In this document: one piece after another, positions 14,056 to 56,154 of the stretch
Layout of the letters: every line of letters starts with the position of its first letter
Position numbering within the stretch: the first letter of the stretch is position 1
Assembly: GCA_037133755.1 (NCBI GenBank)
Contig: JBAXNN010000001.1
Coordinates: 148,838 to 212,837, forward strand
Source of the DNA: Thermoleophilia bacterium
GTDB lineage: Bacteria; Actinomycetota; Thermoleophilia; Gaiellales; F1-60-MAGs149
DNA length: 64,000 nt
Reading direction: 5' to 3'
Notes under the pieces: model-generated
What the model was told of the DNA's origin: nothing
The model's database searches: none
Seen by the model: the letters and a program-made list of their open reading frames with translations, nothing else
Translations under genes and position numbers: made by a program

Positions 14056-14465
14056 TGGACATCACCACGACGACCATCTTGATCGCGATCGTGGCCGGCG
14101 TCGGCGCCGGCGTCCTGGCGGGCCTCTTCGGCGTGGGTGGCGGCGTGATCTTCGTGCCCACGCTCGTACTCGTGTTCTCGTTCCACCAGCTCGACGCGCA
14201 GGCCACGTCGCTCGCCGCGATCGTGCCGGTCGCCGCCGTCGGTGCGTGGCGCCAGTCGAACGACGACAACGTCTACTGGCGCGGCGCGATGCTGATGGGC
14301 ATCGGCGCGGCCGTCGGCGTGGTGATCGGCGCGGAGATCGCCACGCGCATTCCCGACGGCACGCTGTCGCAGGTGTTCGGGGCCGTGCTGCTCCTATCGG
14401 GCGGCGAGATGATCGTCAGCGCCAGCCGTCGGTTGAAGGCGAAGCGGGCTAGCGAACCGGAGTGA
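14055..14465 (+). CDS. TSUP (TauE/SafE) family membrane protein, half-size (4 TM)
   Basis: 136 aa. Its ATG overlaps the upstream TGA (TGATG). Has the motif GLFGVGGGVIFVPTLV. Confidence 0.75.
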   Translation: MDITTTTILIAIVAGVGAGVLAGLFGVGGGVIFVPTLVLVFSFHQLDAQATSLAAIVPVAAVGAWRQSNDDNVYWRGAMLMGIGAAVGVVIGAEIATRIPDGTLSQVFGAVLLLSGGEMIVSASRRLKAKRASEPE

Positions 14466-14470
14466 TGTGT

Positions 14471-14571
14471 TGATGTCCCAAAGGGGTCAGACCTTTTTGG
14501 GACATGAGTGACGCTGCCGCTCTAGTGCGAACGTTGAGAATGTCCCAAAAAGGTCTGACCCCTTTGGGACA

Positions 14572-14574
<3 letters not shown>
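14471..14574. repeat. Composite palindromic element (GGGGTCAGACC-core family), locus A
   Basis: Exactly reverse-complementary 35-bp arms: 14471-14505 (tgatgtcccaaaggggtcagacctttttgggacat) and 14540-14574. The spacer is 34 bp. Each arm is itself a hairpin. The element sits between convergent genes and overlaps the acs stop. Confidence 0.85.
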
Positions 14575-24024: not shown

Positions 24025-27000
24025 CTACCCGACCTTGATCTTGATCGTGCGCACGATGCTCGTGCCGTTCTTGCGCTTGACCTTCATCTTCACCTTGTAG
24101 GTGCCGGGCTTCGACGCCACGAGCTTGCCGTTGACGAGGGTCAGGCCAGCCGGCAGGGCGTCGGCCATGTACTCGACCTTCGACGTCGGGCGCACCCAGA
24201 TGTTCGCGCCGCGCAGGAGGTCTGCACCAGCAGCCGGCGTGGCGGCGTCCAGGATGGCCTCACCGCGCGTCTCACCGACGGTGATGCCCGGCGCCGGCGA
24301 GAACACCGGCGGCGTCTCGACAGACGGGGTCGTCGCAGGCGGTGTCACGACCGGCGAGGCCGGCGACGGCACACGAATCGACGACTCGCTCAGAATCGCC
24401 AGCGCGTCAATTCGGTTCGAACCTGTCACGCGCACCCGCAGGTACCGACCGGCATCCGCGGCAGCCACGGTGTAGCTGCTTGTCGCAGCACCACTGCCCG
24501 AAGCGGTCTCCCACGTCGAACCATCCGCCGACGACTGCCACGCGTAGGCGTAGTCCGTCGCGAAGTCCCACGTGCCTGTCGACGCGGTCAATGTCGAGCC
24601 GATCCCAATCGTGCCCGAGACGACCGGCACAGCCGACGACGTCGGCGCGGGAATCGCGACCTGCGCCGTTGCCGCCGAGAACGCCTCTGCTGAGGCAGCC
24701 GCATTGGTGGCCGTCACCTTCACGCGCAGGTACTTGTTGTCGTCGGTCAGATCCACGACGTACTCCGCCGTATCTCCACCCTCACCGAGCGCAGCCGTCC
24801 AGCCATCCTGACCATTGGACGACACCTGCCACTCATACGCGTACCCCGCGTCAGTATCCGGCGCATTCGACCACGTACCTTGCGAGGCCGTCAGCGTCTC
24901 GCCAACCGTCGCCGTGCCCGAATTCTGCGGCGCATCCGCACCGCCCGCATTCATCGGCGGAGCAGGCACCGTCACGACCGAGCTGTACGCCGCATCCGAC
25001 CACGTCGCGCCGTTATGGGCAATGACACGGACCTTCAGATCCTTGCCGCCATACGACTCCGGCACCACGTACTCCGCGGTCGTCCCCGAAGCACCCGTGG
25101 CAGCCGTCCACGTGTCAGCACCACGGTTCGACACCAGCCAGCGATACGTATAGCGCTCCGGCGTATTAGTCCACTGACCGCTCGTCGCACTCACCGTGTT
25201 GCCAATCCCGACGTCGCCCGTCAGCTCCGGAGCACTACCGAACAGGATGGGCAACGCACCAACCGGAGTGCCTGGAATCGCCGCGAGGCTGTAATCGAGA
25301 GAGTTCACGGTCGCTAGACGGGCAGAGCTGGTGCCATCCAGCGACGCGATACCGACGCCGCTGTTCGCACCGTCTTGGATGACGTAATAGATGCCATTCT
25401 GGTCCACACCGATCCCGCCGTTGCCGTTCCCGGCATTCGAGCCGGCAGGGTTCGCGATGAACGACGGCTGCACATCGGAGCCAGTGACATCAGCACGTCC
25501 GATGGCAGCGTTGTTGTAGTAGGTCCAGTACACGTGGTCGCCATCGACCGCAATGCCTGCGACCCCAGCCGGCAGGCTGTCGACGAAGGTCTGACCCGTA
25601 CCGCCGGTGATTGGTGCCCGGCCGATTGCGCTGCCTGAGCCGGGGCCTCGGTGGTAGTAGATGTAGTGGGCGTCGCGCGCGAAGAAATGCATCGCGGTGT
25701 ACGTATTCGTGTCGATGAAGGTCGGGTCGTGCTCACTGCCGTCGATCTTCATCCGATGGATATACGTGTGACCGTTCACCCCGTTGTCGGTGAAGTAGAT
25801 GTACTGATCGTCAATGAGCACCCCGAAGAAATTCTGCGCTCCAGCGCTATAGATGCTGGCCGGCGCCGTGCTGCCATTGGCGGGAGCCACATAGATGTCG
25901 CCGCTGCAGCCCCAGACGTTGGTCGTGCCGTTGGAGGAAAAGCCCCAACCACCCGGATTCGCGTATGGCTGCAACGACGCACCATCAGCCATCAGTGATG
26001 CGCTCTTGACGTAGAGATGAGACAGCGTCGATAGTGCCGCCACCAGCGTGCTAGCGCTCGAGGCCGTGGCCGTGTTGCCGTTGAAGGCTGTGACCGTCAC
26101 GCGTACGTACTGGCCCACGTCGCCGGTCTGCGTGACATACCCGGCCGTGGCATTGCCAGGGCCCGTCGCGCTCACCCACGTCCCGAGAGCACCCGACGGC
26201 GACAACTGCCACTGGTAGGTGTACGTGATGTTCCCTGTGGACTCCGTCCACGCACCAGGCGTCGCAATCCTGAAGAGGCCGTTGAGCCTCACCGTCGGCG
26301 CGGTGTCGTTCACCGGCGCCGGTGGTGCGGCCACCACGACAGTCGCCGCCGAGTAGGCGGTCGTCAGCAGACCACCGGCCGCCCCGGCACGCACCTTGAG
26401 CCGTACCGTCTTGCCGATATCGGAGATGCCAGGCGCATAGGTGGCCTGGCCATTCGTGCCGGGAGCGGCCGACCACGTTGCGCCGCTATCGCTTGAGACT
26501 TGCCACACGTAGAACACCTGGGACGGCGTGGCCGACCACGTGCCGTCACCCGCCGTCAGCGTCTGCCCCACCGCAGGTGTCCCGCTGATCGTGGGCTGCG
26601 CACTGTTCGTGAGCGCAGCACCCAGTGGCGGCAGCGGGGTCCCGCCGCTGACATGCACCCGCGAGCGATTCGTCAAGTAGGTCATATCGGCGATTCCCGT
26701 CACAAGCGTCGGGTTGACGTCGGTACCGTCGAGCTTTGCGCTGCCAATCTGCCCACCGCTCCAATCGCGTGCCGCCCAGTACAGCCGGCTGCCCGTGGCA
26801 GTGATACCCCAGACCGTGCGCGAGTTCTGCGTGTCCAGCCACGTGTTGTTCTGATCGGTACCGTCGAGCTTGGCACGGCCGATGCGGTTGGAGTAGCTGG
26901 TGCTGACCCAGTACAGATAGGTGCCATCGGTGGTGATGCCGCGAACATCGCCCGTGTTGTTGACGAGCACCTGCGACGAGCCACCATCGATCGCTGTGCG

Positions 27001-28623
27001 GTAGATGGCATTGCCACCAAACGAGTACAGCCAGTTGGCATCGCCGGTCATGGCATGCCCCCACAGCACGCCGCTGCCGTCGGCGAAGTGCCGGATGTTG
27101 TGCTGGCCATCCACGTCGACTCGACCGATCCAGGTGTTCACCGAGCAGTTGTAATACAGGTACTCATCTGTGACGTACAAACTGCCAAGGCCGTAGTAGT
27201 TGCCGTCGTTACCCCGAACCGTGGAGCAGAGGGTGTCAACGAGCTCCGTTGCCGAGCCGGTTCCGTCGATGCTCTTCTGACAGATCTTGTCTGCATCCTG
27301 ACGCCCATAGAACATGGTGCTGTTCCATCCGAACGCGTCTTCTCTCGAACATGTGGTGCTGATGCTGTCGTCGCGACCGCCGGGAATCGCCACGCCCGTG
27401 GTGTCATTGATCCATGTAGAGCCCACCGCAGTGTTACCCGCCCAGTAGAGCGTCGTCGAGGGCAGCGGCGTCAGCGCAGCGATCGTCTGCGCCGACGAGT
27501 GCGCCGACGTCAGCACGCCGCCCGTCGCGCCCGCGCGCACCAGCACGCGAAGCTGTTTGCCGACATCGCCGCGCTTGGGCGCGTAGCTGCTCGTTGTCGC
27601 GTCAGCTCCTGCTCCGTTGGACCACGTGGATCCGCTGTCTGCCGACACCTGCCACTGGTAGTACACATCGTCAGGCGTGGCCGACCACGTTCCCGCATCG
27701 GCAGTGACGATCTCGCCCACCTGCACCGTGCCTGTTATCGCAGGCGCCGCGGAGAGGGTGAGCGCCGGACCGAGGGGCACCTTCGGCGTGCCCCCGATGA
27801 TCGAGATCTGATGGTTCTGGCCCGTTGCCGTGATGCCGGTGATCAGCGTCGGCTGCACATTCGTGCCGTTGAGGTTCGCCTTGCCGACCGTGCCTGGGAA
27901 GCGCGACGTCCAGAAGATGCTGCTGCCGTCGACCTCGACTCCCCAGACCTGGGCGGTCGACTGCGTGTCGAGCCAGGTGTGGTCGATACCGGTGCCGTCG
28001 AGGTTGGCGCGGTGGATGAAGCGGGAGTCAAACCCCGACCAGTAGATGTGCTGGCCGTCGACCGCGATCCCGCGCATGTCGAACCCGGCGTTGACGTTGT
28101 ACGTCGGGTCGATAGGTCCGCCGCTCTCAGGATTGACCCGGCGAATGCCCGCATAGCTATACCCGATGTACAGCCAATTCGCATCCGTGGTGAGGCTGTA
28201 GGGATAGTTGCCGTCCACGCCCCACGCGAAGTGCGGGTTGTTGTGGGTGCCGTCGAGGTTCGCTCGGCCGATCCACTTGCTGCGGACGCACGTGTAGAAG
28301 ATGTGCGAAGCAGATGCGGTGAAGCCCGCGATGCCGCACTGCGTATTCGCAACTGTTCGGTTCACGTTGCCGCCCGTCAGGTCCTGGGTGCAGATGTAGT
28401 TGCCACTCGTGCCGTACAGCGTGGTGGCGTCGGCGAAGAACGCGTACTCCGCCAGGCAGTTGGTGCTGACCGAGAAGTTGACGTTCGTGCCGTCCGTCGA
28501 CGCGGTGCCGATGCTCGAGTCGGCGCCCCAGTACAGGGACCCTGCTCGCGCCTGAGCCGAGAAAGTGCCGAACAGCGCGACAAGGAAAATGGCGATGACG
28601 GTCGCCGCCGAAGGCTTCTTCAT
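24025..28623 (-). CDS. Giant secreted protein: three YWTD/LDL-receptor-class-B-like beta-propeller regions alternating with Ig-like domains, plus a conserved C-terminal domain
   Basis: The ATG at 28623 gives MKKPSAATVIAIFLVALFGTFSAQARA, for 1532 aa. Recurrent blade motifs include LYWG/IYWS/IFWT/LYWA and IGRANLDGT/IGRAKLDGT/IGSAKLDGT. There are repeated ~90-aa modules of the type G.WS..P....Y.WQ.S.D.G..W......Y......D.G..LRV.V.A. Confidence 0.85.
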   Translation of the reverse strand: MKKPSAATVIAIFLVALFGTFSAQARAGSLYWGADSSIGTASTDGTNVNFSVSTNCLAEYAFFADATTLYGTSGNYICTQDLTGGNVNRTVANTQCGIAGFTASASHIFYTCVRSKWIGRANLDGTHNNPHFAWGVDGNYPYSLTTDANWLYIGYSYAGIRRVNPESGGPIDPTYNVNAGFDMRGIAVDGQHIYWSGFDSRFIHRANLDGTGIDHTWLDTQSTAQVWGVEVDGSSIFWTSRFPGTVGKANLNGTNVQPTLITGITATGQNHQISIIGGTPKVPLGPALTLSAAPAITGTVQVGEIVTADAGTWSATPDDVYYQWQVSADSGSTWSNGAGADATTSSYAPKRGDVGKQLRVLVRAGATGGVLTSAHSSAQTIAALTPLPSTTLYWAGNTAVGSTWINDTTGVAIPGGRDDSISTTCSREDAFGWNSTMFYGRQDADKICQKSIDGTGSATELVDTLCSTVRGNDGNYYGLGSLYVTDEYLYYNCSVNTWIGRVDVDGQHNIRHFADGSGVLWGHAMTGDANWLYSFGGNAIYRTAIDGGSSQVLVNNTGDVRGITTDGTYLYWVSTSYSNRIGRAKLDGTDQNNTWLDTQNSRTVWGITATGSRLYWAARDWSGGQIGSAKLDGTDVNPTLVTGIADMTYLTNRSRVHVSGGTPLPPLGAALTNSAQPTISGTPAVGQTLTAGDGTWSATPSQVFYVWQVSSDSGATWSAAPGTNGQATYAPGISDIGKTVRLKVRAGAAGGLLTTAYSAATVVVAAPPAPVNDTAPTVRLNGLFRIATPGAWTESTGNITYTYQWQLSPSGALGTWVSATGPGNATAGYVTQTGDVGQYVRVTVTAFNGNTATASSASTLVAALSTLSHLYVKSASLMADGASLQPYANPGGWGFSSNGTTNVWGCSGDIYVAPANGSTAPASIYSAGAQNFFGVLIDDQYIYFTDNGVNGHTYIHRMKIDGSEHDPTFIDTNTYTAMHFFARDAHYIYYHRGPGSGSAIGRAPITGGTGQTFVDSLPAGVAGIAVDGDHVYWTYYNNAAIGRADVTGSDVQPSFIANPAGSNAGNGNGGIGVDQNGIYYVIQDGANSGVGIASLDGTSSARLATVNSLDYSLAAIPGTPVGALPILFGSAPELTGDVGIGNTVSATSGQWTNTPERYTYRWLVSNRGADTWTAATGASGTTAEYVVPESYGGKDLKVRVIAHNGATWSDAAYSSVVTVPAPPMNAGGADAPQNSGTATVGETLTASQGTWSNAPDTDAGYAYEWQVSSNGQDGWTAALGEGGDTAEYVVDLTDDNKYLRVKVTATNAAASAEAFSAATAQVAIPAPTSSAVPVVSGTIGIGSTLTASTGTWDFATDYAYAWQSSADGSTWETASGSGAATSSYTVAAADAGRYLRVRVTGSNRIDALAILSESSIRVPSPASPVVTPPATTPSVETPPVFSPAPGITVGETRGEAILDAATPAAGADLLRGANIWVRPTSKVEYMADALPAGLTLVNGKLVASKPGTYKVKMKVKRKNGTSIVRTIKIKVG

Positions 28624-28663
28624 GCAAACCAACGTACGCGCGCGCTATAAGCCGCACGCGAAG

Positions 28664-43715: not shown

Positions 43716-43820
43716 GCGGGGCAGCGTAGCCGGGTTCGGCTTGCGGATCTGCCTACGGCCTGCACGGCGATCTGAGCGTGGCAGGAGTGGCAGTGAAGGT
43801 GCTTCGGAGCGGTGATCCAG

Positions 43821-43930
43821 TGTGGATGCTCCAAAGGGGTCAGACCCGTATGGAGCATGTGCGCGGATCACGGCAAACCGATGACGCCACTAATGCTCCA
43901 TACGGGTCTGACCCCTTTGGAGCATCCACA
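43821..43930. repeat. Composite palindromic element (GGGGTCAGACC-core family), locus B
   Basis: Exactly reverse-complementary 38-bp arms: 43821-43858 (tgtggatgctccaaaggggtcagacccgtatggagcat) and 43893-43930. The spacer is 34 bp, the same length as at locus A. Confidence 0.85.
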
Positions 43931-43976
43931 CCTGACTGACGACCGGCTGCGTCGTTCTGGCTCAGAGGCTGAACGC

Positions 43977-44708
43977 CTAGCGAAGCCCGAGCGCGGTGCG
44001 CAGCGCGCGGGTCTGGCGGCGAGCCACCTCGAGCACCGTGCCGTTCTTGTCGGACAAGCGCACCTGCACGCGGCCCTCGCCGACCGGCTCGAGCGCCGCG
44101 ACGAGTGTGAGGTTGACGATCTGCGAGCGATGGATGCGCATGAACGTGCTGGGCAGCAGGTCTTCGAGCGCGCGGAGCGAGCGGGGCGAGCCAAGCACGC
44201 GGCCGTCGGCGAGGGCGATGCGCGAGCGGTCGCGGTCGGCCTCGGCGTACGCCACCTCGGCCGGGTCGACGAGCAGTGTCTCCTCGCCGTCGCCATCGAC
44301 GGGGATGCGCGCTTCCATGGCGGCGCCTGGCGCAGTGCCCGCGCGGATCGCCGCGACGCGGCGGACGGTGGTGAGCAGGCGGTCCTCGCGCACCGGCTTG
44401 AGCAGGTAGTCGACGGCCTCGACCGAGAACGCCTGGATCGCGCGATCGTCGTGCGCGGTGACGAACACGACGGTCGGGCGGTGCGGCAGATCGGCCAGCG
44501 TCTTGGCCAGCTCGATACCGCCCTTCCCCCCGGGCATGGAGATGTCGAGGAAGACAACGTCGTACGCCATGCGCTCGGCGAGCACGAGCGCCTCGCGCGC
44601 GCTCGCGGCCTCGCCCGCCACCTCGATGCCGTCGATGCCAGTGAGGAGATGACGCAACTCGCCGCGCGCCGGTGCCTCGTCGTCGACGATCAGCGCGAGC
44701 AGACTCAT
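43977..44708 (-). CDS. LytR/AlgR-family response regulator (receiver plus LytTR DNA-binding domain)
   Basis: 243 aa. Contains ALIVDDEAPAR, DVVFLDISMP, and the C-terminal LytTR region FMRIHRSQIVNL. Confidence 0.9.
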   Translation of the reverse strand: MSLLALIVDDEAPARGELRHLLTGIDGIEVAGEAASAREALVLAERMAYDVVFLDISMPGGKGGIELAKTLADLPHRPTVVFVTAHDDRAIQAFSVEAVDYLLKPVREDRLLTTVRRVAAIRAGTAPGAAMEARIPVDGDGEETLLVDPAEVAYAEADRDRSRIALADGRVLGSPRSLRALEDLLPSTFMRIHRSQIVNLTLVAALEPVGEGRVQVRLSDKNGTVLEVARRQTRALRTALGLR

Positions 44709-49188: not shown

Positions 49189-49686
49189 GTGAGCACGCCG
49201 CCCACCTCGATCACCACCCCCCTCAGCAGCGCAGAATGCGCCGCGAAGGCACGCGAGCATGCCGCCAACGAGGCGACGTGGCGCCCGCACGTCAAGCACG
49301 AGCCAGACACGCGCCACTTCCACCGCCTTGAGCACAACGACGCGTACGAGACGTACGTCATCTCGTGGATGGACGACCACGACACGGGCTTCCACGATCA
49401 CGACGTCTCCTGCGGTGGCGTGCACGTGATCGAGGGCGGCATCTTCGAGGAGCGCCTCGGCTTTGGCACCGACCATCTCGAGCGCCTCGTCGGTCCCGGC
49501 GAGACGATCGAGTTCGCGCCGTCGTACATCCACCGCTTCCGCCCGACGGACGGTATCCCCACCGTCACGATCCACGTCTACTCGCCTCCGCTGCGCACGA
49601 TGGGTGCGTACCACCGGGCCCCGGATGGCGCTCTGATCCGCACGCCGATCGACGGCGACGAGGAGCTCGTCAACCTCGACGCCTAG
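49189..49686 (+). CDS. Cysteine dioxygenase type I-like cupin
   Basis: 165 aa with a GTG start. Contains YVISWMDDHDTGFHDHDVSCGGVHVIEGGIFEE...IHRF, a cupin metal-binding pattern. Confidence 0.6.
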   Translation: MSTPPTSITTPLSSAECAAKAREHAANEATWRPHVKHEPDTRHFHRLEHNDAYETYVISWMDDHDTGFHDHDVSCGGVHVIEGGIFEERLGFGTDHLERLVGPGETIEFAPSYIHRFRPTDGIPTVTIHVYSPPLRTMGAYHRAPDGALIRTPIDGDEELVNLDA

Positions 49687-49781
49687 GTCGCGGCCGCACC
49701 GCTCCCCACCCGAGACCGCTCTCCCCTGCACTCCGGTCTCGTGGCGGGCGAGCCGTGGCGCGCGCTGCGAGAATTCGACGC

Positions 49782-50180
49782 GTGCAGCCCGAGCAGATCG
49801 CCGCTGGCCTCCTCGATGCCAGCCTCCCCCAGCCTGAGTGGACGCACCGCGGCCACATCACCGCGGCGCACGTGCTGATCTCGGCGCACGGGGCAGAGGA
49901 GACGCTCGCTCTCTGTCGCGAGCGCATCCCGCTCCTCAACGACGCGCACGGCGTCGAGAACTCCGACACCGGTGGGTACCACGACACCCTGACGGTCTTC
50001 TATGTCGCCGCCGTCGCGGACGCCGTGGCGCGCGGACTGACGATCGACGAGACAGTGGCCGAGCTCGGCCGCGACGTAGCGCTGCGGTGGTGGAGCGAGC
50101 CGGTGCTGATGAGCACCGAGGCGCGCCGGGCCTTCGTGGCGCCCGACGTCGCGGTGCCGCCGTTCGCCCTATCGCCCTAG
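49782..50180 (+). CDS. Hypothetical protein
   Basis: The GTG at 49782 gives VQPEQIAAGLLDASLPQPEW.... The upstream part of ORF 49365..50180 overlaps the cupin gene and is Arg-rich. Confidence 0.45.
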   Translation: MQPEQIAAGLLDASLPQPEWTHRGHITAAHVLISAHGAEETLALCRERIPLLNDAHGVENSDTGGYHDTLTVFYVAAVADAVARGLTIDETVAELGRDVALRWWSEPVLMSTEARRAFVAPDVAVPPFALSP

Positions 50181-50190
50181 TCGGCAATCA

Positions 50191-50223
50191 ACGTCCTAAA
50201 GAGGTCTGACCCCCTTAGGAAGT
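50191..50223. repeat. Single hairpin unit of the GGGGTCAGACC-core family, locus C
   Basis: acgtcctaaagaggtctgacccccttaggaagt. Its reverse complement carries GGGGGTCAGACC flanked by the pairing arms tcctaa/ttagga. It lies 11 nt after the stop at 50180. Confidence 0.7.
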
Positions 50224-50410
50224 TGAGAGACCGTCACTCGCTTCGTCGTGCCGGCAGAGGCGCGCGTGAGGAGTGCGTACTAATGGTGTACGCCGCAGGC
50301 GGGCACCAGAAGTGCGCACTCAGCACGTACGCCGGCAACATTGAGCACGCTAGGAAGTGAGCTGGATCCGACCAGGGCGTACGTGCCAAGTGCGAACGAG
50401 TGACGCCCGC

Positions 50411-52144
50411 CTAGCCGCGCTTGCGGAGCTTCTGGATCTGCGGCCAGGTGCGCGTGTTGACGATGTCGGCCTTCGATGCCCAACCGCGGCGCGCGGTGTC
50501 GACGCCGTAGCGGAGGACGTCGAGGCCGCCCGTGTTGTGCGCGTCGCTCGAGATGCAGAGCTTCACGCCCGCGTTGATCGCGGCGCGCGCGTGCTCGGGG
50601 CGCAGGTCGAGGCGCTTCGGGTTCGCATTGATCTCGAGGAAGGTGCCGGTGCGGGCGCAGGCGGCGATCAGCGCCTCGACGTCGACGTCGTATGGCTCGC
50701 GGCCGTCGAGCAGCCGCCCGGTCGGGTGCGCGATCACGTCGACGTGCGGATGCTCGATCGCGGCGACCATGCTCGCCGTCAACTGCTCACGGTTCTGGCC
50801 GCGCACGCCATGAGCCGAGGCGACGACCCAGTCGAGCTCGGCCAGCACCTCGTCGGGCAGATCGAGCGCGCCGCCCGGCAGGATGTCGACCTCGATGCCG
50901 GTGAGCAGGTGGAAGCCCTTGGCCTCGAGCCCCTTGGCGGCCTTCTGCACGCGCTTGGCGTTCGCGAGCGTCTCGGCCGGATCGAGACCGATGCCCATGC
51001 CGACCGCCTTCGAGTGGTCGGTGACCGCGTAGTACGTGAGCCCGCGTTCCATCGCGGCCTGCGCCATCTCGGTCGGCGTCGCCTTGCCGTCAGACGCATC
51101 GGAGTGGCCGTGCAGATCGCCCTTGATGTCCTTCAGCTCGACGAGCTTCGGCAGCGTGCCGTCGGCCGCGGCCTCGAGCTCCCCCTGGTTCTCGCGCAGC
51201 TCGGGCGGAATCCACGCGAGGCCAAGGCGCTTGTAGACGTCGGCCTCCTTCGCGCACGGTTCGGGCTCGCCGCCATCGATCGGCGCGAAGCCGTGCTCGG
51301 ACAGACTCAAACCCTGATCGCGGGCGCGCTCGCGCAGCGCAACGTTGTGCGCCTTCGAGCCGGTGAAGTGCTGGAGCAGCGAACCCCACTGCGTCGGGTG
51401 GATGACGCGCAGGTCGACCTGCATGCCGTCGTGCAACACGACCGAAGCCTTGGCGTCGCCCAGCGCAATCACGTCCTGCACTCCCGGGTGCTCGGCGAAC
51501 CGCTGCAGCAGCGGACCGGGATCGTCGGACGAGGCGACGAGGTCGACGTCGCCGACGACCTCCTTGCGGCGCCGCAGCGAACCGGCGATCTCGGCCTCAC
51601 GGCACCCCGTCTCGGCGCGCAGCGCGTCGACCAGCATCTCCGCACGGTCGAGCGCGTGGTCGAGCAGGATCACGTGCTTGCGCGGCCCGCCACCGGCGTT
51701 GAGCGCATCGAGGATCGTCTGCTCTTTCTTGGCACCGAGACCCTTGAGCTCGCGCAACTGGCCCGCCTCGCACGCGGCCTTGAGCGCGTCGGGCGAGTCG
51801 ATACCGAGCTCGGCATAGAGGCGCTTGGCGGTCTTCGGACCGACGCCTGGCACTCCCATCATCTCAACGAGACCATCCGGGTACTTCTCGCGCAGCTTCT
51901 CGAGCGCCTGCAGCGTGCCGGTCTCGCGGTACTCATCAACCTTGGCCGCGATCGTCGCGCCGATACCGGGGAGGTCGGTGAGGCGCCCCTCCTCCGCCAT
52001 GCGCTCGACCGATTCGGCCGTGCTGCGGAACTGGTCGGCCGCGCGGCGGTACGCGATCACCTTGTGGACGATCGCGCCGTCCAGTTCCGACAGGCTCGCG
52101 AGGAGGTCGAAGAGGTCGGCGACCTCGCCGTTCTTCACCGCCAT
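50411..52144 (-). CDS. polX: DNA polymerase X family protein with a C-terminal PHP phosphoesterase domain
   Basis: The ATG at 52144 gives MAVKNGEVADLFDLLASL. Contains HhH motifs (LPGIGATIAAK, VPGVGPKTAKRLY), the pol-beta core GSLRRRKEVVGDVDLV, and the PHP region DLHGHSDASDG...ISSDAHN. Confidence 0.9.
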   Translation of the reverse strand: MAVKNGEVADLFDLLASLSELDGAIVHKVIAYRRAADQFRSTAESVERMAEEGRLTDLPGIGATIAAKVDEYRETGTLQALEKLREKYPDGLVEMMGVPGVGPKTAKRLYAELGIDSPDALKAACEAGQLRELKGLGAKKEQTILDALNAGGGPRKHVILLDHALDRAEMLVDALRAETGCREAEIAGSLRRRKEVVGDVDLVASSDDPGPLLQRFAEHPGVQDVIALGDAKASVVLHDGMQVDLRVIHPTQWGSLLQHFTGSKAHNVALRERARDQGLSLSEHGFAPIDGGEPEPCAKEADVYKRLGLAWIPPELRENQGELEAAADGTLPKLVELKDIKGDLHGHSDASDGKATPTEMAQAAMERGLTYYAVTDHSKAVGMGIGLDPAETLANAKRVQKAAKGLEAKGFHLLTGIEVDILPGGALDLPDEVLAELDWVVASAHGVRGQNREQLTASMVAAIEHPHVDVIAHPTGRLLDGREPYDVDVEALIAACARTGTFLEINANPKRLDLRPEHARAAINAGVKLCISSDAHNTGGLDVLRYGVDTARRGWASKADIVNTRTWPQIQKLRKRG

Positions 52145-54568: not shown

Positions 54569-55540
54569 TCAGGCCAGGTGGTCCCAGCCGCGCAGCGCCT
54601 CGTCGGCGCCCGCGCCGGTGAAGCGCACACCCGCCGGGCCGTCTTCGACGCGGCCGATCACCGTCAGGGGCACGCCGCAGGCGTCGACGGCCTCGGGCGG
54701 CATCGCCGTCACGAGCTCGTAGTCCTCGCCGCCGGTGGCGGCGTAGGCGCCCGGTGCACGGCGCAGCGTCTGGGCGATCAGGCGCACGTCCTCGTGCAGC
54801 GGCAGCGCGTCGAGATCGACCACGAGCGAGACGCCACTGCGTTGCGCCAGCCGCGGCAGGTCGGTGGCCAGGCCGTCGGACACATCCATCATCGCGTGCA
54901 CGTGCGGTGCGAGGAGCGCGCCGTCGGTCAGGCGCGGGTGCGGGCGGCGGTGGCGCTCGATGCACTCGTCGGCACCGGGCAGATCGCGCAGCGTCGCGTC
55001 GAGCAGCGCAGCCAGGCCGGCGGCCGATTCGCCGAGTGTGCCTGTGACGGCGATCACGTCGCCCGGGCGAGCACCGTCGCGACCCGGCGGATCGATGCTG
55101 GCGCGGCCAAGCACGCTGATCGACAGCGCCAGGCCCGAGCCGCGCGCGACGTCGCCGCCGACGATCGGACAGTCGTACAGCCGGGAGCACACCTCAAGGC
55201 CGCTGTAGATCGGCTCCAGCGAGGTCGCGTCGCCCTCGCCGATCACGATCGAGACCAGCGCGGCCAGCGGCAACGCGCCCATCGCCGCGATATCGGAGAG
55301 GTTGACGGCCAGCGCCTTCCAGCCGACATCGGCGGGGCTCGACAGATCGCGGCGAAAGTGGACGCCATCGACCTGCGCATCGACGGTCCAGACGAGATCG
55401 GGCGACAGCACCGCGGCGTCGTCACCCATGCCGCGTGGGATCCCGGGCGTGTCGCGGCCGACGATCACCGCGAGACCGGCCATCAGCGCGTCCTCGTCGG
55501 CATGCGCCGTGCCCTCTCCCCATCCCGGCTGGTCTGCCAT
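54569..55540 (-). CDS. thiL: Thiamine-monophosphate kinase
   Basis: The ATG at 55540 is preferred. Contains GDDAAVL, VDGVHF, GWKALAVNLSDIAAMGA and the AIR-synthase-like fold motifs GGDV and GEDYELV. Confidence 0.8.
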   Translation of the reverse strand: MADQPGWGEGTAHADEDALMAGLAVIVGRDTPGIPRGMGDDAAVLSPDLVWTVDAQVDGVHFRRDLSSPADVGWKALAVNLSDIAAMGALPLAALVSIVIGEGDATSLEPIYSGLEVCSRLYDCPIVGGDVARGSGLALSISVLGRASIDPPGRDGARPGDVIAVTGTLGESAAGLAALLDATLRDLPGADECIERHRRPHPRLTDGALLAPHVHAMMDVSDGLATDLPRLAQRSGVSLVVDLDALPLHEDVRLIAQTLRRAPGAYAATGGEDYELVTAMPPEAVDACGVPLTVIGRVEDGPAGVRFTGAGADEALRGWDHLA

Positions 55541-55566
55541 GTGCGGGATCGTAGCCCGGTCGGCGA

Positions 55567-56154
55567 TCAGGCCGCGGGGTCGGGCCGCCACGACGCGCTC
55601 CACGCGGCGTCGTCTGTGCGGTAGGTGCGATCGGCACGGTCGCGCGTGGCTTCGCGGGCGAACGTCACCTGCTCCTGCGCGGCCCAGCGGTCCCAGTGGT
55701 CGAGGTACACCTCACCGTCGCGAGCGATGGCGCGGGCGTAACGCTCCTCGGTCTCGGCCTCGAGCCAGATCAGCAGGCTGATGAACGGCGCCGCCGCGCG
55801 CGAGCCGGCACCGACACCTTCGATCACCAGCAGCGGCTCCGTCATGAGCGGCTCGCGCTCGCGTTCGCGCATCTCGAGCCAGTCCCAGCACCGGATGGTC
55901 GCCTGTTCGCCGCGCGACAGCGGCTCGAGGACGTCGTCGACGAGTCGCTGGGCGCCCTCGTCGAGCCCGTCCCAACCGGGATACATGTCCTCGAGACGCA
56001 GCAGGCCCGCGCCGCTCGCCTCGGCGAGTCTCGTTGCGAAGGTCGACTTGCCGCTGCCCGACGGGCCGTCGATCACGACCACCGTCGTCGCACCCGCCCG
56101 CGGCTGGAGCTGCCGTACCTCCTGCGCGAGTGCTGCGAGGTCGGCGGCGTCCAT
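55567..56154 (-). CDS. P-loop NTPase (uridine kinase/AAA-like)
   Basis: 195 aa with the Walker A motif IDGPSGSGKST. The specific function is unclear. Confidence 0.6.
   Translation of the reverse strand: MDAADLAALAQEVRQLQPRAGATTVVVIDGPSGSGKSTFATRLAEASGAGLLRLEDMYPGWDGLDEGAQRLVDDVLEPLSRGEQATIRCWDWLEMREREREPLMTEPLLVIEGVGAGSRAAAPFISLLIWLEAETEERYARAIARDGEVYLDHWDRWAAQEQVTFAREATRDRADRTYRTDDAAWSASWRPDPAA

Follow-up and report, generated by a model that had tools for sequence, protein, structure and literature searches.

REPIN-like palindromic doublets in a Thermoleophilia genome and their probable link to RAYT-type transposases

Here we report a small family of palindromic repeats in a 64,000-nt stretch of the genome of a Thermoleophilia bacterium (contig JBAXNN010000001.1 of assembly GCA_037133755.1), which is called the window below and in which all coordinates are given. 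The window contains five 33-nt palindromic units at three intergenic sites, arranged as two inverted doublets (elements A and B) and one singlet (element C). They add a new case to a type of element that is already known and do not amount to a new system. Most probably they belong to a family of repetitive extragenic palindromic (REP) sequences and REPINs (REP doublets forming hairpins), whose mobilization, in the form of a single-stranded DNA hairpin, depends on a REP-associated tyrosine transposase (RAYT) encoded outside the window. The evidence comes from the anatomy of the units, the symmetry maintained within the doublets, their turnover among related genomes, and the occurrence of the same core sequence beside transposase genes in sister lineages.

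Palindromic units at three intergenic sites

The first complete inverted doublet, hereafter REPIN A (14471-14574), occupies the gap between two convergent genes, a TauE-like gene with its stop codon at 14463-14465 and a minus-strand acetyl-CoA-synthetase-like gene, whose own stop codon (14572-14574) is located inside the outer part of the right arm of the doublet. The 35-nt arms of REPIN A (14471-14505 and 14540-14574) are 100% complementary according to a repeat finder. They contain unit A1 (14473-14505, plus strand), an imperfect palindrome centered on A14489 with the core GGGGTCAGACC at 14483-14493, and unit A2 (14540-14572, minus strand), the exact reverse complement of A1. The spacer between them (14506-14539), which would form the loop of a long hairpin, is weakly homologous to spacers from other REPINs.

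The second complete doublet, REPIN B (43820-43931), lies 45 nt past the 3′ end of a minus-strand gene (43977-44708) for a LytTR response regulator. Its arms, 39 nt long and again 100% complementary (43820-43858 and 43893-43931), include a GTGTGG foot and hold unit B1 (43826-43858, plus strand), which belongs to the ATGCTCC...GGAGCAT subtype, and its exact reverse complement B2 (43893-43925, minus strand). The spacer of REPIN B (43859-43892) has the same length as that of REPIN A, exactly 34 nt, and the two spacer sequences are unrelated to one another. Two metagenomic contigs that carry the gene 43977-44708 (L196 and L197) end 8-71 nt past this gene, at the position of REPIN B; the element apparently breaks short-read assemblies.

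Singlet C (50191-50223, minus strand) lies 10 nt past the stop codon of the plus-strand open reading frame (ORF) 49365-50180, and the 3′ end of a PolX-like gene faces it. This unit is degenerate, with one stem mismatch, and is nearer to the type of unit found in Solirubrobacterales (TTCCTAAAGGGGTCAGACCCCTTTAGGAA); it is a decaying remnant. All three loci are located 6-45 nt from a stop codon.

The exact 11-nt core GGGGTCAGACC occurs five times in the window; with one mismatch allowed the count rises to six, where 1.6 would be expected, and none of 100 shuffled sequences reached six. The units are symmetric around a central A, with 0-2 non-Watson-Crick positions each. The palindrome is directly preceded by a 5′ flank with the consensus GTG(T/C)GG, which reads GTGTGG in REPIN B and GTGTTG and GCGCTG on the two flanks of REPIN A. 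A covariance model (R1), trained on 41 related units and then run over the window, recovered exactly five copies with E-values from 1e-10 to 1e-17, the scores being 62.2 bits for A1 (E = 1e-17), 60.4 bits for A2, 57.9 bits for B1, 58.3 bits for B2 and 40.8 bits for C. The next match had an E-value of 0.2, and the model gave no further copies in the 64 kb. An earlier note on this DNA, made from its letters alone, had listed the same five units, and their coordinates and sequences stand, as do the arms facing each other across exactly 34 nt at A and B and the gene context, with A and C between convergent gene ends and B between codirectional genes. The length of 104-110 bp that it gave for the two super-palindromes is right for A and slightly short for B, which spans 112 nt.

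Symmetry, distribution and turnover of the doublets

Each doublet is predicted to fold into one long hairpin on both strands, as either RNA or DNA, with z-scores of -12 to -17 (-12 to -16 for REPIN A). The predicted RNA hairpins reach -80 to -87 kcal/mol, the single-stranded DNA hairpin of REPIN B has a free energy of -60.8 kcal/mol (z = -17), and the hairpin of singlet C is weak (-10 kcal/mol). In an alignment of 41 distinct units of the Gaiellales type, to which A and B belong, 93.7% of the stem cells are paired and 7 of the 15 stem pairs vary on both sides, a score far above that of shuffled and slid controls and attained in 0 of 500 shuffles. The argument of the earlier note that such covariation points to a selected hairpin holds on this larger set, except that pairing from arm to arm across a doublet gives a stronger signal than pairing inside a unit. 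When 15 doublets are compared arm to arm, 96.1% of the cells are paired, 18 of 39 pairs are compensatory, there is almost no G-U pairing, and not a single pair varies on one side alone; the same doublets modeled as two separate unit hairpins are 91.6% paired. Mutations that break the stem of a unit, such as CGTA in REPIN B and TTTA in locus L019, are mirrored in the partner arm, and therefore it is the symmetry of the whole doublet that persists. The maintained feature is Watson-Crick symmetry at the DNA level, not a G-U-tolerant RNA helix, and the DNA folds of the two strands are equally good.

A scan of 185,579 species genomes with a pattern built from three unit variants returned at least 111 loci. 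About 60 of the matches listed belong to Thermoleophilia, where they comprise metagenome-assembled genomes (MAGs) of Gaiellales, Solirubrobacterales and Thermoleophilaceae together with two isolates, Solirubrobacter phytolaccae and S. deserti, and further copies of the family are present in at least four related genomes. The Gaiellales-type unit, GTGTGG-ATGTCCCAAAGGGGTCAGACCCTTTTGGGACAT, is nearly always arranged in inverted doublets, and the Solirubrobacterales-type unit, ACCTAAAGGGGTCAGACCCCTTTAGGT, which singlet C resembles, occurs mainly as singlets or in clusters. Among the matches listed, all 17 doublets share the orientation GGGGTCAGACC ... GGTCTGACCCC, the spacers are 31-40 nt long with a mode of 34, and the units of ten doublets are perfectly complementary. 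Outside this class, the AAAGGGGTCAGACCCCTTT palindrome is also found in Planctomycetota, Lachnospiraceae, candidate phyla and Proteobacteria.

Two further arrangements were observed among the retrieved loci. One Planctomycetota MAG carries a 43-nt perfect palindrome, CTACTGTCACCTAAAGGGGTCAGACCCCTTTAGGTGACAGTAG, on many contigs (L008, L048, L069, L090, L093, L099, L103 and L107); it has the same core and ends tagged with CTAC...GTAG, the GTAG being like that of classical REPs. At L072:30-225, a Gaiellales-type REP and a 41-nt spacer form three direct tandem copies with a 74-nt period, and REP clusters therefore also form by local duplication.

The location of copies 3′ of genes, seen in the window by the earlier note, generalizes to related genomes. 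A gene 3′ end faces the Gaiellales-type elements on 31 of 36 callable flanks, a bias that is approximate, as the genes were called by a crude classifier based on G+C content at the third codon position, and that includes non-independent loci (L021 and L071 are one locus, and window A is orthologous to a site in L096). None of 26 doublet-type elements is located in an interval between divergent genes. The elements of the Solirubrobacterales type are less biased toward 3′ ends (42 vs 24). Such placement is expected for a mobile element because insertions survive where promoters stay intact, and it is equally expected from a function at gene 3′ ends.

Sequence similarity places the window in a Gaiellales-like organism: it is 88-91% identical over 8 kb to L096, a Lake Pavin "Actinomycetota" MAG, and 86% identical over 1.6 kb to L065, a Gaiellales MAG. 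At the site in L096 that is orthologous to A, the coding flanks are 90-97% identical to those in the window, whereas identity in the 34-nt spacer drops to ~38% and the two arms are of the other subtype (ATGCTCC/GGAGCAT), with each difference mirrored in the partner arm. Point mutation in place could not plausibly yield this pattern; replacement by another family member could. The spacer of REPIN B is homologous to that of a doublet in the Gaiellales locus L007 (alignment score 13 vs a null maximum of 9), while the flanks of these two doublets are not homologous and the sites are non-orthologous. A weak CGGCAGNCCGACA-like consensus is shared by about 9 of 16 spacers. In L065, a REP follows the orthologue of gene 54569-55603, where the window has none. 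Master units are common to species: two Gaiellales MAGs carry ATGTCCCAAAGGGGTCAGACCCTTTTGGGACAT, and the Lake Pavin MAG has the ATGCTCC form. Taken as indirect evidence, these comparisons suggest that the doublet turns over as a unit. An inversion switch was considered as an explanation for spacers that appear inverted between loci and was rejected: the elements are inserted in either orientation, and the spacer inversions are only apparent because the doublet arms are symmetric.

Transposase genes beside the shared core

In L050, a Solirubrobacteraceae MAG, a frameshifted ORF located from a weak local match lies between two copies of the motif. The reconstructed product is a Y1 transposase that scores 43.5 bits with PF01797 (cut-off 23) and 77 bits with NF047646, "REP-associated tyrosine transposase" (cut-off 80). 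Its homologues number 2,288 at E <= 1e-10, and many of them are named RayT by their sources. When the transposase profile was compared with solved structures, the sole match was E. coli TnpA-REP bound to a REP (PDB 4ER8); IS608-type TnpA, unlike TnpA-REP, was not matched.

Palindromes of the form GGGGTCWGACCCC are located on both sides of Y1_Tnp genes in L050, L062 (S. deserti) and L113, and on one side in L115-L118, L120, L144, L189 and L190, with several copies upstream of the gene in L115. In Solirubrobacterales and many metagenomic lineages, same-core GGGGTC(A/T)GACCCC palindromes often overlap the transposase stop codon, and related cores (GGGGCCWGGCCCC, GGCCCAGGGCC and GGGGACTGTCCCC) are found beside other members of the transposase group. 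Of the 120 best homologues, 17 have C-terminal peptides that the motif encodes (...PKGV-stop, KGVRPL, KGSDPL), and about as many again have C-termini encoded by a variant core. We also identified 80 metagenomic transposase loci through the protein alone, 78 of them with usable flanks; ~44 of the 78 are bracketed by inverted repeats beginning (A/T)GGGGTCAG(G/A)(T/C)CTT.

By their signature, NHMH / FQ / YIxxNP, the transposases are probable members of subclass 2.1 (Bertels Group 1), the closest fit in Table 1 of PMC6006769. This subclass was recorded without REPs in the 2018 survey (PMC6006769), and its flanks were described as only weakly repeated (PMC5581495). The term "Actinobacteria" does not occur in the surveys PMC3733652, PMC5581495 and PMC6006769.

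Two side observations concern the transposase genes themselves. For about one-third of the 120 homologues (P0001-P0120) the C-terminus is encoded by the gene's own 3′ REP, with the endings PKGV-stop, KGVRPL, KGSDPL, KGARPL, KGAWPL and KGPGPL, and the TGA within GGGGTCTGACCCC is often the transposase stop codon. In addition, a GGGG(G)CGAG(G/A) box precedes the transposase start codon by ~20-45 nt in L112-L121, L123 and L135, where it sits between the 5′ REP and the ATG in different lineages; its possible roles are as a promoter or leader element or as a component of the transposase recognition site.

Interpretation and alternative explanations

The REPIN is defined as an inverted REP doublet with spacers that are constrained in length yet diverse in sequence (Bertels and Rainey, PMC3337134). 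Among the possibilities raised in the earlier note, a REP- or MITE-like element, a bidirectional terminator and a protein-binding site, the REP reading is supported by the REPIN anatomy of the doublets and by the same-core palindromes flanking RAYT-like Y1 genes. Like the REPIN-RAYT systems of Pseudomonas fluorescens SBW25 (GI-GIII) and the REPs and bacterial interspersed mosaic elements (BIMEs) of E. coli, the window elements are extragenic inverted doublets of short imperfect palindromes, with length-constrained and diverse spacers and a near-perfect hairpin, and the doublets are conserved while singlets decay. The likeness may include a GT(A/G)G-like foot, as GTGTGG precedes the palindrome in most copies, among them REPIN B but not REPIN A, and it extends to the presence of same-core REPs around a Y1 transposase gene of the HUH superfamily, here in sister lineages. 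The differences are that the host belongs to Thermoleophilia, an actinomycetotal class, and not to Proteobacteria, and that the transposase clade falls under the curated RAYT cut-off and has a signature that fits subclass 2.1.

A second known system, the TIRYT transposases and their TIRtrons, shares the recognition motif. The terminal repeats of TIRYT genes carry a GGGGWSAS motif and can be self-complementary, dimeric or clustered, in moderately abundant families (Di Nocera et al. 2013, PMC3733652). The window core begins with GGGGTCAG, an exact fit to this motif, which also opens the inverted repeats on either side of most homologous transposase genes retrieved. In the window, by contrast, the motif delimits no transposase gene. 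It occupies the apex of a complete 33-nt palindrome, which has spread in the form of free-standing doublets, and no transposase gene lies between the units or next to them. As judged from these sequence comparisons, the GGGGTCAG(ACC) core is probably the motif by which RAYT/TIRYT-type HUH Y1 transposases, a large clade, recognize both their ends and their REPs. The presence of the core in different phyla would then be explained because the clade is widespread, and not by a universal host signal. With the IS200/IS605 elements, members of the same HUH Y1 superfamily (PF01797), the window elements have in common sub-terminal hairpins, the proposed movement as single-stranded DNA and the lack of a target-site duplication; they differ in having neither a transposase nor tnpB, and in being symmetric doublets instead of elements with distinct left and right ends.

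We therefore favor a mechanism in which the REPIN is a non-autonomous mobile element of 104-112 nt that, as single-stranded DNA, would fold into one long perfectly paired hairpin. A single-copy transposase of the RAYT/TIRYT clade, presumably encoded elsewhere in this genome and acting on doublets of the A and B type, would bind the REP hairpins. By analogy with the IS200/IS605 TnpA and E. coli TnpA-REP, it would cut and rejoin single-stranded DNA via a phosphotyrosine intermediate, so that whole doublets would be excised and re-inserted. Copies would persist chiefly in short non-coding gaps downstream of genes, where harm is least, and effects on transcript 3′ ends, if any, would be secondary. 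A more specific proposal, somewhat less likely than not, is that an actinomycetotal order harbors in these doublets a true REPIN population that persists by vertical descent. Its driver would be a Group 1 / subclass 2.1 / TIRYT transposase, with the GGGGTCAG core conserved across phyla and master sequences shared between species. Such a population would take REPIN-RAYT systems well outside Proteobacteria and would illustrate the conversion of a terminal repeat into a self-complementary REP.

Several observations weigh against the assignment to a RAYT-driven family. A Y1 transposase gene is absent from the 64-kb window and from ~150 kb of Gaiellales-type loci, and the doublet subtype (arms ATGTCCC/ATGCTCC) stands beside a transposase gene in none of the 90 transposase loci inspected; likewise, no C-terminus among the 120 homologues is encoded by a doublet-type REP. 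What connects the doublets to a transposase is therefore the shared core together with the evidence from sister lineages. Six transposase homologues give full-length matches of 60.6-77.2 bits with NF047646, below the equivalog cut-off of 80 bits, and thus they are RAYT-like and not curated equivalogs. The core was described as invariant in the earlier note, and it is so in all five window copies; among the retrieved loci, its invariance is partly an ascertainment effect, being circular because the scan pattern demanded that core, and variants such as GGGGCCWGGCCCC and GGGGACTGTCCCC do exist in repeats reached independently via the transposase protein. Three loci in 64 kb are a small sample. 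Finally, a host function would equally account for two observations, the strong bias toward gene 3′ ends and the doublet kept at an orthologous site.

The last point leads to the best surviving alternative, in which the doublets are host RNA hairpins of 3′ untranslated regions, acting as bidirectional terminators, attenuators or exonuclease barriers, and are repeated through shared function and not through mobility. The short distances to stop codons at the three window loci, the 3′ ends facing the elements in relatives, the doublet kept by a second species at the site orthologous to A, and the high predicted stability of the RNA hairpins are all compatible with this explanation, and E. coli REPs have such secondary effects (PMC3337134). 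We nevertheless consider it unlikely. Like intrinsic terminators, the doublets are stable G+C-containing hairpins directly downstream of stop codons, but they have a stem of 35-39 bp, a 34-nt loop and a sequence conserved across loci and genomes, and neither doublet combines a hairpin with a T-run; the bidirectional terminator proposed in the earlier note is thus not supported in its canonical form. Scans for canonical promoters and terminators at A and B yielded nothing overlapping either element. The compensation is nearly pure Watson-Crick, which is atypical of a selected RNA helix, and both strands are equivalent. Moreover, the element at the orthologous site was replaced whole and not conserved, a spacer lineage is common to non-orthologous sites, and the same core flanks transposase genes. 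No Rfam family was found in the whole window at the gathering threshold; when thresholds are relaxed, the sole matches of the doublet are to models of microRNA precursors, which any long perfect hairpin triggers as an artefact.

A second alternative is that a dimeric host protein, such as a nucleoid-associated, gyrase- or IHF-like protein or a regulator, recognizes GGGGTC-N-GACC and binds the units as double-stranded DNA. E. coli REP/BIME elements bind gyrase and IHF, and a palindromic core that is invariant in 5/5 window copies and conserved across deep phylogenetic distances would fit such a site. This reading is nonetheless very improbable, and a free-standing binding site is not needed to explain the data. 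Doublet-type elements are lacking in the divergent, promoter-side intergenic regions (0/26), covariation reaches 15-20 bp past the core and links arms 34 nt apart, neither of which a simple operator needs, and the conserved protein adjoining the motif is a single-strand-specific HUH transposase.

Least tenable of all is an origin of the doublets as classical miniature inverted-repeat transposable elements (MITEs) from an insertion sequence with a DDE transposase, for although their length of 104-112 nt, perfect terminal inverted repeats of 35-39 nt and intergenic multi-copy distribution resemble such elements, there is no target-site duplication (flanks GATGTGT/GCGCCCC at A and GATCCA/CTGACT at B), each arm is itself palindromic, a trait that characterizes REPs but not the ends of DDE-type elements, searches of the window, plasmids, phages and viral contigs revealed no insertion sequence bounded by such ends, and the motif is instead located at the ends of Y1 transposase genes.

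BLAST of doublet A against plasmids and phages returned no match, IMG/VR viral contigs lack the doublet-type unit and contain only seven distant relatives of the transposase, and the 11- and 13-mer cores retrieved only unrelated primers and viral sequences from full-text literature. A CRISPR-like array, suggested by 33-nt repeats and 34-nt spacers, was rejected, as the repeats are inverted and not direct and only two are present per locus. A resemblance to Tn3-family ends (GGGGTCTGAC...) was set aside, as the GGGG is at the center of the unit and not at its outer end.

REPINs and RAYTs have been studied almost wholly in Pseudomonas and enterobacteria, and a REPIN family in uncultivated freshwater and soil Thermoleophilia would provide a distant comparison point that bears on the persistence of intragenomic sequence populations and on the evolution of transposase recognition motifs. 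Knowledge of how REP elements work is unchanged by the finding. In genome analysis, the elements apparently break metagenomic assemblies, seed spurious small ORFs and protein C-termini, and mimic structured RNAs in motif screens.

Two other features of the window deserve mention. Between singlet C and the PolX-like gene, positions 50258-50412 contain a hairpin-rich non-coding element of ~155 nt, unrelated to the REP units, with an internal inverted repeat (50297-50333 / 50376-50412), which is 80-94% identical to L004:428-590 from a Gaiellales MAG in a non-syntenic context and yields only generic hairpin matches in Rfam; it is a candidate for a further small mobile repeat or for a small RNA. 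Four paralogous cassettes with 60-90% DNA identity are located at about 21.2-24.3, 30.9-33.5, 35.5-37.9 and 38.5-41.3 kb, each consisting of a NarL/LuxR-type response-regulator gene (~215 aa) followed by a ~570-aa gene without a Pfam match, and interspersed with them on the opposite strand are very large genes containing repeats, for example 24025-28632, which has DUF5050.

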